Of a stretch of DNA of 7,468 bases, positions 6,900-7,468 are shown piece after piece. The position numbers were made by a program, and so were the translations under genes. This DNA is from an uncultured archaeon (lineage in GTDB: Archaea; Asgardarchaeota; Jordiarchaeia; Jordiarchaeales; Jordiarchaeaceae). The stretch lies in NCBI GenBank assembly GCA_964510585.1, contig CAZECW010000107.1, positions 1-7,468 of the forward strand, written 5' to 3'. Numbering within the stretch: position 1 is the first letter of the stretch; each line of letters begins with the position of its first letter. The notes beneath the pieces are model-generated. The model was not told the origin of the DNA and did not search any database. It saw nothing but the letters and a program-made list of their open reading frames with translations.

Positions 6900-6907
6900 T
6901 AACTTAC

Positions 6908-7233
6908 AAAGACGGGTGCTCAGAAAGCCCCCGACTTTAATCGTGGGGATGAATGGACAAAGATTTAAAGGTTTTCCGCTAAACACTGTATATTAGATGT
7001 GGCTCGGATGTCCAAAGGCTCGAATAAGGCTCCAAGCCGAGACAGGCAGAGAAGGTTCGAACATTTAACGATAATCCCAAGTCCCACAAGGGACAGGGAT
7101 AACTGGGTGGTGGCACACCCATTGCAGATAGCCACTGAGCGGTGAAGGAATGAACGCTTAAACGAATGTATCCCTGAGCGTTGAAGGAAGCTGTGTGCAA
7201 GAATCCCCCGACTTCAGTCGAAGGGAGTGTCAA
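6908..7233 (+). mobile_element. Non-autonomous IS200/IS605 (IS608-like) mini-element, 326 bp
   Basis: Target TTAC at 6904-6907; left-end guide AAAG (6924-6927) at the foot of hairpin CCCCCGACTTTAATCGTGGGG (6928-6948); right-end guide GAAT (7201-7204), hairpin CCCCCGACTTCAGTCGAAGGG (7205-7225) and terminal TCAA (7230-7233). This is the IS608 end code. No full tnpA or tnpB lies between the ends. Confidence 0.88.
7008..7145 (+). pseudogene. 45-aa in-frame ORF, probable internally deleted tnpB remnant
   Basis: MSKGSNKAPSRDRQRRFEHLTIIPSPTRDRDNWVVAHPLQIATER*. The PSPxRDRDNWVVAHPL tail resembles TnpB C-terminal tails as I recall them, and it sits just upstream of the right end. Not verified by search. 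Confidence 0.5.
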
Positions 7234-7235
7234 AT

Positions 7236-7468
7236 CTACCTTCTTCTGCTATTTCTACTACCGCCTCTGTCTCTTCTGAATGGTTTTCCTGTGTATTGTG
7301 GGCGTTCTCCTCCGCCGTATCTTGGGTGGGGTCGGCGTTCCTGTTCGTATACTCGGTTTGAGAGGTTGTTTTCTGTGTTGACTTCTGCGGGTGTTTCCTC
7401 CTCTATTTCTTCCATTGTTCCGTATTTTCCAAGGTTTAGTCTTAGGGAGCCTTTGAAAACTGTTGTGT
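7236..7468 (-). CDS. ssb: Single-stranded DNA-binding protein (OB-fold, Sulfolobus-like SSB), 3' part; runs off the window
   Basis: Not in the ORF track. Frame 7466 to 7236 reads TTVFKGSLRLNLGKYGTMEEIEEETPAEVNTENNLSNRVYEQERRPHPRYGGGERPQYTGKPFRRDRGGSRNSRRR*. TTxFKGxLxLNxG matches the last OB-fold strands of crenarchaeal-type SSB, followed by an R/G-rich tail. Stop TAG at 7238-7236. Confidence 0.78.
   Translation of the reverse strand, partial: TTVFKGSLRLNLGKYGTMEEIEEETPAEVNTENNLSNRVYEQERRPHPRYGGGERPQYTGKPFRRDRGGSRNSRRR

Follow-up and report, generated by a model that had tools for sequence, protein, structure and literature searches.

A gene-less IS608-type element of an Asgard archaeon carrying a tnpB-derived, omega-RNA-like scaffold

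The stretch of DNA analysed here (the window, 7,468 nt) constitutes contig C107 of a 3.78-Mb, 217-contig genome of a hot-spring Asgard archaeon, an affiliation indicated by profile matches to actin (456 bits) and EAP30 of ESCRT-II (70 bits). The right-hand end of the window is occupied, on the minus strand, by the 3' part of a gene for an Ssb-like protein, whose orthologue in the same-genus genome G005 consists of an Ssb-like OB fold (PF21473) followed by an RGG tail. Two nucleotides from the stop codon of this gene ends a 326-bp element, whose features are compiled in Table 1. It is devoid of terminal inverted repeats and carries subterminal palindromes in the same orientation; the two hairpin regions (6916-6949 and 7193-7226) thus form a direct and not an inverted repeat, and both fold as bulged hairpins. 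In the left one, C6928-A6934 pair with T6941-G6943 and G6945-G6948, and the same left hairpin precedes tnpA in autonomous copies. The element is a gene-less, non-autonomous IS200/IS605 element (PATE) of the IS608 type. The last 209 nt of the window (7260-7468, ssb-like 3' part) recur with 98% identity at a contig end, C131:15770-15978, where the C-terminal tail and the downstream sequence are different; contigs C107 and C131 stop at the same base, and the recurrence reflects either another paralogue or variation between strains at which the assembly breaks.

Table 1. Features of the 326-bp element and its immediate surroundings (positions are those of the window).
Feature	Position	Strand	Remarks
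TTAC target and left cleavage tetranucleotide (CL)	6904-6907	+	Outside the element; retained in the empty site; found at all siblings
Whole mini-element, 326 bp, subfamily B, without protein-coding gene	6908-7233	+	Sibling alignment, empty site
Left guide AAAG (GL)	6924-6927	+	Directly 5' of the left hairpin; kept in 64/64 left ends
Left imperfect palindrome (IPL)	6928-6948	+	7 paired bases, T6944 bulged, C6935/A6940 mismatch by the loop
BRE/TATA-like AAAGATTTAAAGG, archaeal type (candidate promoter)	6960-6972	+	Sequence comparison; 3/4 subfamily B copies
tnpB C-terminal coding relic TIIPSPTRDRDNWVVAHPL	7068-7124	+	15/19 residues as in C81 TnpB
Helix I, omega-RNA-like two-part hairpin (ATCCC/GGGAT, GTCCC/GGGAC)	7074-7100	+	
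Helix II (TGGGTG/CACCCA) with conserved loop GTGGCA	7104-7121	+	
Helix III, long variable hairpin	7122-7200	+	Base pairs 7122-7126 with 7196-7200
Right guide GAAT (GR)	7201-7204	+	Directly 5' of the right hairpin; kept in 70/70 right ends
Right imperfect palindrome (IPR), also helix IV of the RNA scaffold	7205-7225	+	Bulged A7221, C7208/A7222 mismatch
TCAA right cleavage tetranucleotide (CR)	7230-7233	+	Final four bases of the element
Predicted guide segment of read-through omega-RNA, ATCTACCTTCTTCTGC...	7234-7253	+	Placed according to the published OMEGA layout
3' end of Ssb-like neighbour gene, outside the element	7236-7468	-	Stop codon TAG 7238-7236

Three further copies were found in the same genome, two of them full-length (C58:28227-28557, and one on the minus strand of C32) and one in two parts, at the end of C162 and the start of C21. 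All three start directly after TTAC, as the preliminary description of this DNA had anticipated for sibling copies, finish with GTGTCAA, and are flanked by unrelated sequences; together with the C107 copy they are referred to as subfamily B. That description had also predicted that the site would read AACTTAC/ATCTACC (the slash marking the junction) before insertion. This was found letter for letter in the same-genus genome G003, in which the flanks (about 91% identical) are contiguous, AAAAGTAACTTAC being joined directly to ATCTACCTTC with no gain or loss of bases, so that the insertion occurred 3' of TTAC without target duplication or loss. G004 is also empty at this site, but reads TTAT there. 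The siblings and the empty allele, in which deviating boundaries had been proposed as the decisive counter-evidence, show identical ends, and the 326-bp boundaries hold. In the fourth copy, a 139-bp AT-rich palindromic miniature element (ends TGCTGTGTTGC...GCAACACAGCA; L003:2-140, corresponding to the start of C21, and C162 24394-24531) is flanked by an 8-bp duplication, CTGGTAAA; it has at least 12 other genomic copies, 99-100% identical and several of them at contig ends, and resembles the small repeats that target PATEs in Haloquadratum.

A pattern search of the whole genome recovered 64 left-end-like and 70 right-end-like sites. TTAC was located 13-16 nt 5' of AAAG in all 64 related left ends, as compared with its occurrence in 7% of random 24-mers, and TCAA formed the terminus of 69 of the 70 right ends. 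Complete pairs of ends within contigs (n = 13) fell into two size classes; ten measured 271-276 bp (family A) and three 326-333 bp (subfamily B). Many further ends lie about 100 nt from a contig end, indicating that these repeats break the assembly; with about 130 related ends in the assembly, many of them at contig ends, the fragmentation of this draft genome is explained. Family A amounts to about 70 near-identical copies. The pattern combining scaffold and right end occurred 62 times in the present genome (G000) and twice in G004, and was absent from the four other same-genus genomes when G001 to G005 were compared. To judge from these counts, we are dealing with a lineage-specific burst, mostly of the 271-276-bp family. 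No tnpA or tnpB lies beside the two G004 scaffold copies (L052 and L054). That the motifs and hairpins at 6904-7233 are a chance constellation in an intergenic region that never was mobile could draw on the shortness of the tetranucleotides and on the fact that each hairpin, taken alone, reaches a z of only about -2 against shuffles, but siblings with identical boundaries, about 130 ends obeying the same rule and an exact empty allele exclude it.

Neither the 326-bp element nor the 84-aa ORF on its minus strand yielded a Pfam match. This ORF is broken in the siblings and no ORF is kept across copies, in agreement with the earlier statement that no transposase is encoded; the 84-codon ORF is not a gene, and should serve as a warning for annotation. 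In IS608 of Helicobacter pylori, the code consists of TTAC (CL), AAAG (GL), TCAA (CR) and GAAT (GR), with TTAC 19 nt 5' of the foot of the left hairpin and TCAA 10 nt 3' of the right foot (PMC3201880, PMC5934647). The same four tetranucleotides occur in the element at the positions first assigned to them, as do bulged subterminal palindromes in direct orientation and insertion 3' of TTAC without duplication; the spacing is 20 nt on the left and 8 nt on the right. Unlike IS608, the element has neither tnpA nor tnpB, its bulged bases are T (left) and A (right), its host is an Asgard archaeon, and it is described here at the level of sequence. A second precedent is provided by the PATEs of Haloquadratum walsbyi, which lack terminal inverted repeats, carry palindromes near both ends, generate no target duplication, are too short to encode a transposase, derive from IS605-type elements by core deletion, and are often hit by other small mobile repeats (PMC3119063). 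The element shares these traits, including the small repeat nested in one sibling, and every sequence-level feature by which PATEs are defined in Haloquadratum is present in it. The H. walsbyi PATEs belong to another lineage and host, and their guide-RNA content was not considered in that work (PMC3119063).

The preliminary description had suggested that the element could be mobilised by a TnpA encoded elsewhere. The genome contains four loci matching Pfam Y1_Tnp and five matching the TnpB zinc-ribbon domain. In C169, C7, C162 and C49, the order is TTAC, a 15-nt spacer, AAAG, the hairpin CCCCCGAC-TTCAA-GTCG-T-GGGG (arms CCCCCGAC...GTCGTGGGG), a 129-aa Y1 TnpA and tnpB, the TnpA frame being open in C169 and C7. 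The almost identical left end in front of these transposase genes makes it plausible that the element is mobilised in trans, and a source of TnpA does exist elsewhere in the genome. Right ends follow tnpB at C8 and C81, and four contig ends, among them the start of C8, show a tnpB 3' end together with its right end. The tnpB piece of C7 is frameshifted, and the tnpB sequences linked to an intact tnpA are contig-end pieces; because the contigs break inside autonomous copies, the assembly yielded no complete intact cognate tnpB linked to an intact tnpA. Downstream of distant tnpA loci, right ends were sought with a loose pattern, which produced nothing of use. In a search of a genome collection from which the window's own genome had been left out, the closest relatives of TnpA were bacterial (e.g. 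Dehalococcoidia), with 65-73% identity. Two Dehalococcoidia contigs (L082 and L083; TnpA 73% identical) display TTAC, spacer, AAAG, CCCCCGACTTTAGTCGAGGGG and ATGAATCGCC about 100 nt upstream of tnpA. Bacterial relatives behind a nearly identical left end indicate that this IS lineage has been transferred between bacteria and Asgard archaea.

The nearest complete TnpB is encoded on contig C81. It belongs to a diverged IS605 (L006:1386-3100, minus strand; C81 5075-6787), in which a 571-codon open frame runs from a degenerate tnpA, with YIQ in place of the HUH motif, into full-length tnpB. In this TnpB and 22 homologues (69-83% identity) from Jordarchaeaceae, Bathyarchaeota and Nitrososphaerota, Gly occupies the canonical RuvC-II Glu position in 23 of 23 sequences, and an invariant Glu is found about 47 residues downstream in the same 23. 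The idea that the C81 TnpB is nuclease-dead, which would make the element a guide for a repressor, was dropped, as the Gly and the downstream Glu are both invariant in these proteins. The combination fits the published 'RuvC-II rearranged' class of TnpB, which is predicted to be active.

Judging from alignments, the interior of the element, on which the preliminary description had been silent in this respect, is not filler but the 3' end of a lost tnpB gene. In the plus-strand frame, 15 of the 19 residues of TIIPSPTRDRDNWVVAHPL are identical to residues 370-388 of the C81 TnpB (E 4e-9), and the last ~170 nt of subfamily B align with family A, with the 3' ends of autonomous tnpB genes (C8 and C152) and with the diverged IS605 on C81. 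The zinc-ribbon domain lies immediately upstream of the aligned tnpB 3' ends of C8 and C81. All element types adopt the same four-helix fold, made up of a two-part hairpin, a hairpin with a GTGGCA loop, a variable long hairpin and the right-end hairpin. RNAalifold, applied to ten representative, related sequences, returned 29 pairs, 8 of which show compensatory double changes; 95% of cells were paired, versus 34-53% with slid partners, and the covariation score reached 0.235, versus at most 0.087 in controls, with none of 500 shuffles attaining the observed score. Part of this covariation may predate the deletion and stem from autonomous ancestors. Among element types, compensatory changes affect 5 of the 8 counted pairs of helix I, and the base of helix III covaries while its length ranges from 24 to 80 nt; helix II underwent a T:A to C:G double change in four family A copies. 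In the C107 copy, helices I to III are free of mismatches. The loop of helix II (UGGCA) and the terminal UGUCA could engage in a 5-bp pairing, a possible pseudoknot that is nearly invariant and hence beyond test by covariation.

With regard to helix I (compared over window 7060-7100), the modules of C107 and C21 are wholly different from those of C58 and C32, while the deletion junction is common to these copies and the sequences on either side of it are about 90% alike; the version present in C107 matches that of the C81 element. On sequence comparison, a single RNA helix seems to have been exchanged here by a patch of recombination. At the other extremity of the scaffold, the GAAT guide, together with the 3' arm of helix III before it and the right-end hairpin after it (GAAGCAAGAATCTCCCGACTT; C81 5075-5140), also codes for the conserved TnpB tail ...EARISRL, so that one stretch combines three roles, in protein coding, in the RNA scaffold and in recognition by the transposase. 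A permissive Rfam scan gave one match, sot0042 (RF02656), at 7069-7225 over the full model (1-174) with 23 bits (E 0.008) against a gathering score of 88 bits, which denotes resemblance and not family membership. RF02656 represents a haloarchaeal small RNA that overlaps the 3' end of tnpB in sense orientation, and the alignment takes in helices I and II, a conserved UAAAC...UAUC stretch and the terminal hairpin. As a family detector the model was rejected, for the score is far below threshold and the C107 copy is its only match in the genome.

The overall best explanation of these data, to which we assign a probability of roughly 85%, is a PATE that arose by internal deletion of a tnpA-tnpB insertion sequence and that would couple mobility through TnpA in trans with an omega-RNA-like scaffold. 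Spared by the deletion were the two ends and the last ~230 nt of tnpB, whereas the greater part of that gene and the whole of tnpA were lost. By analogy with characterised systems, TnpA acting in trans would bind the two top-strand hairpins with their bulges and be led to TTAC by the AAAG guide and to TCAA by the GAAT guide; a single-strand circle would be excised and then re-inserted after another TTAC. The tnpB-derived top-strand scaffold and the 3' flank of the element fit the OMEGA layout, in which the guide is located immediately beyond the right end; transcription that continues from the scaffold into the flank would, on the same analogy, yield an omega-RNA with the guide ATCTACCTTCTTCTGC..., which, given TnpB in trans, would direct cutting of the emptied site only (TTAC followed by ATCTACC...), favouring restoration of the element, a retention mechanism described by Meers et al. 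2023 (PMC10055086). The 16-mer of the guide occurs only once in the genome, and TTAC stands in front of none of its near matches, which would leave the emptied site as the one target open to TnpB. If TTAC is the TAM (assumed by analogy), the occupied site would not be cut, since the guide match follows TCAA and not TTAC there. As for transcription, AAAGATTTAAAGG may be a retained promoter, as it corresponds in position to AAAGCTTATAGG, found ahead of tnpA in the autonomous IS. A bolder version, in which the members of subfamily B are working, mobile, stand-alone guide-RNA genes that use the retained tnpA promoter and are served in trans by a TnpB with Gly at RuvC-II, strikes us as improbable; if true, the helix I swap between C107/C21 and C58/C32 would reflect switching of the TnpB partner, not drift.

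The position of the insertion also had to be considered in relation to its neighbour. The final codons and 3' end of the minus-strand ssb-like gene show complementarity to the predicted read-through RNA, and a TATA-like stretch lies upstream, as would be expected of a domesticated small RNA gene whose antisense transcript regulates the ssb-like gene independently of transposition. The overlap, however, follows simply from the landing place, the insertion is absent at this site in G003 and G004, and the other copies adjoin unrelated sequences; such a function is therefore very improbable, and the deletion-derived PATE described above remains the preferred reading.

Within this preferred reading, the present activity of the C107 copy is a separate matter. 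The four copies of subfamily B are 82-85% identical to each other, and the G-run of the right hairpin carries a different substitution in each. Folded as DNA, the left and right hairpins of the C107 copy reach -5.0 and -5.4 kcal/mol, compared with -6.6 and -6.7 kcal/mol for family A, -7.9 kcal/mol for the autonomous left end and -2.8 kcal/mol for the C58 sibling at its right end; in the right hairpin, the C107 copy bulges an A where the autonomous IS has a C. The preliminary description had noted one extra mismatch in each hairpin (6940 and 7222) and had read both as mild ageing of this copy. Both mismatches are real and A7222 is indeed private to the C107 copy, but A6940 is common to all four copies, and a T at the position of 6935 in two siblings restores a T-A pair, so that the 6935/6940 mismatch is not simply private decay but a trait of the subfamily. 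Ageing is thus broadly right as a description of the whole four-copy subfamily, though not of the C107 copy alone. The latter belongs to an old, low-copy subfamily and may be weakly active or inactive.

Contigs from four hot-spring metagenome runs (four studies) bridge either the left or the right junction, both being covered between them, and one of the strains with an occupied site is about 3.6% diverged. None of the runs recorded for this stretch is an RNA run. Two products of excision had been proposed as a check, the joint of the emptied site and the circle joining right end to left end. Neither the donor joint TTACATCTACC, skipping 6908-7233, nor the circle junction (TCAA joined to AAAGAC) was seen in the assembly or in the contigs of the four metagenome DNA runs, and no empty allele was disclosed either, whether by a pattern search of the assembly or in these contigs. 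As contigs drop rare variants, the missing excision products say little. Being occupied in the ~3.6% diverged strain and empty in G003, the insertion predates the divergence of that strain and postdates the divergence from G003, unless the element was lost from G003 through precise excision.

These observations bear on a more modest view, according to which the C107 copy does originate from a mini-transposon but is no longer excised, transcribed or used by TnpB, its features being inherited only. Both of its hairpins are weakened, only four copies diverged by 15-18% exist, each with its own right-hairpin substitution, one sibling is split by the nested 139-bp element, the site is occupied without any skipped joint in contigs of all four runs, the diverged strain included, and the ~70 near-identical copies of the 271-276-bp family suggest that recent activity took place there instead. 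On the other side, all four tetranucleotides of the code are intact, helices I to III have remained mismatch-free, copies differing by 15-18% keep their helices through paired changes, and the absence of excision products from contigs weighs little. We consider such an inert fossil possible but, on balance, doubtful, and retain as the better account a PATE with predicted TnpA mobility in trans and an omega-RNA-like scaffold.

This account has published counterparts in bacteria. In Geobacillus stearothermophilus, omega-RNAs are encoded by gene-less, PATE-like IS200/IS605 elements (Meers et al. 2023, PMC10055086); for OMEGA systems, mobilised omega-RNAs that stand alone and work in trans have been summarised (PMC10691335). 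Like these, the element is composed of a left end, a scaffold and a right end without protein genes, and TnpA and TnpB would be expected to act in trans. The trans activity of the bacterial omega-RNA elements is experimentally supported, whereas the element described here is archaeal and recognised through its nucleotide sequence; moreover, the nearest complete TnpB (C81) falls into the clade in which Gly replaces the RuvC-II Glu.

Overall, no new principle emerges, as both PATEs carrying omega-RNAs and standalone omega-RNAs have been published already; the subfamily represented by the C107 copy is older and rarer than family A, and its elements are longer. The locus nevertheless provides a clean natural case of the IS608 rule set outside bacteria, in an Asgard archaeon of hot springs, with target, guides, cleavage sites and empty site verified. 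It also indicates that gene-less IS200/IS605 derivatives in a hot-spring Asgard archaeon keep the predicted guide-RNA module of TnpB.
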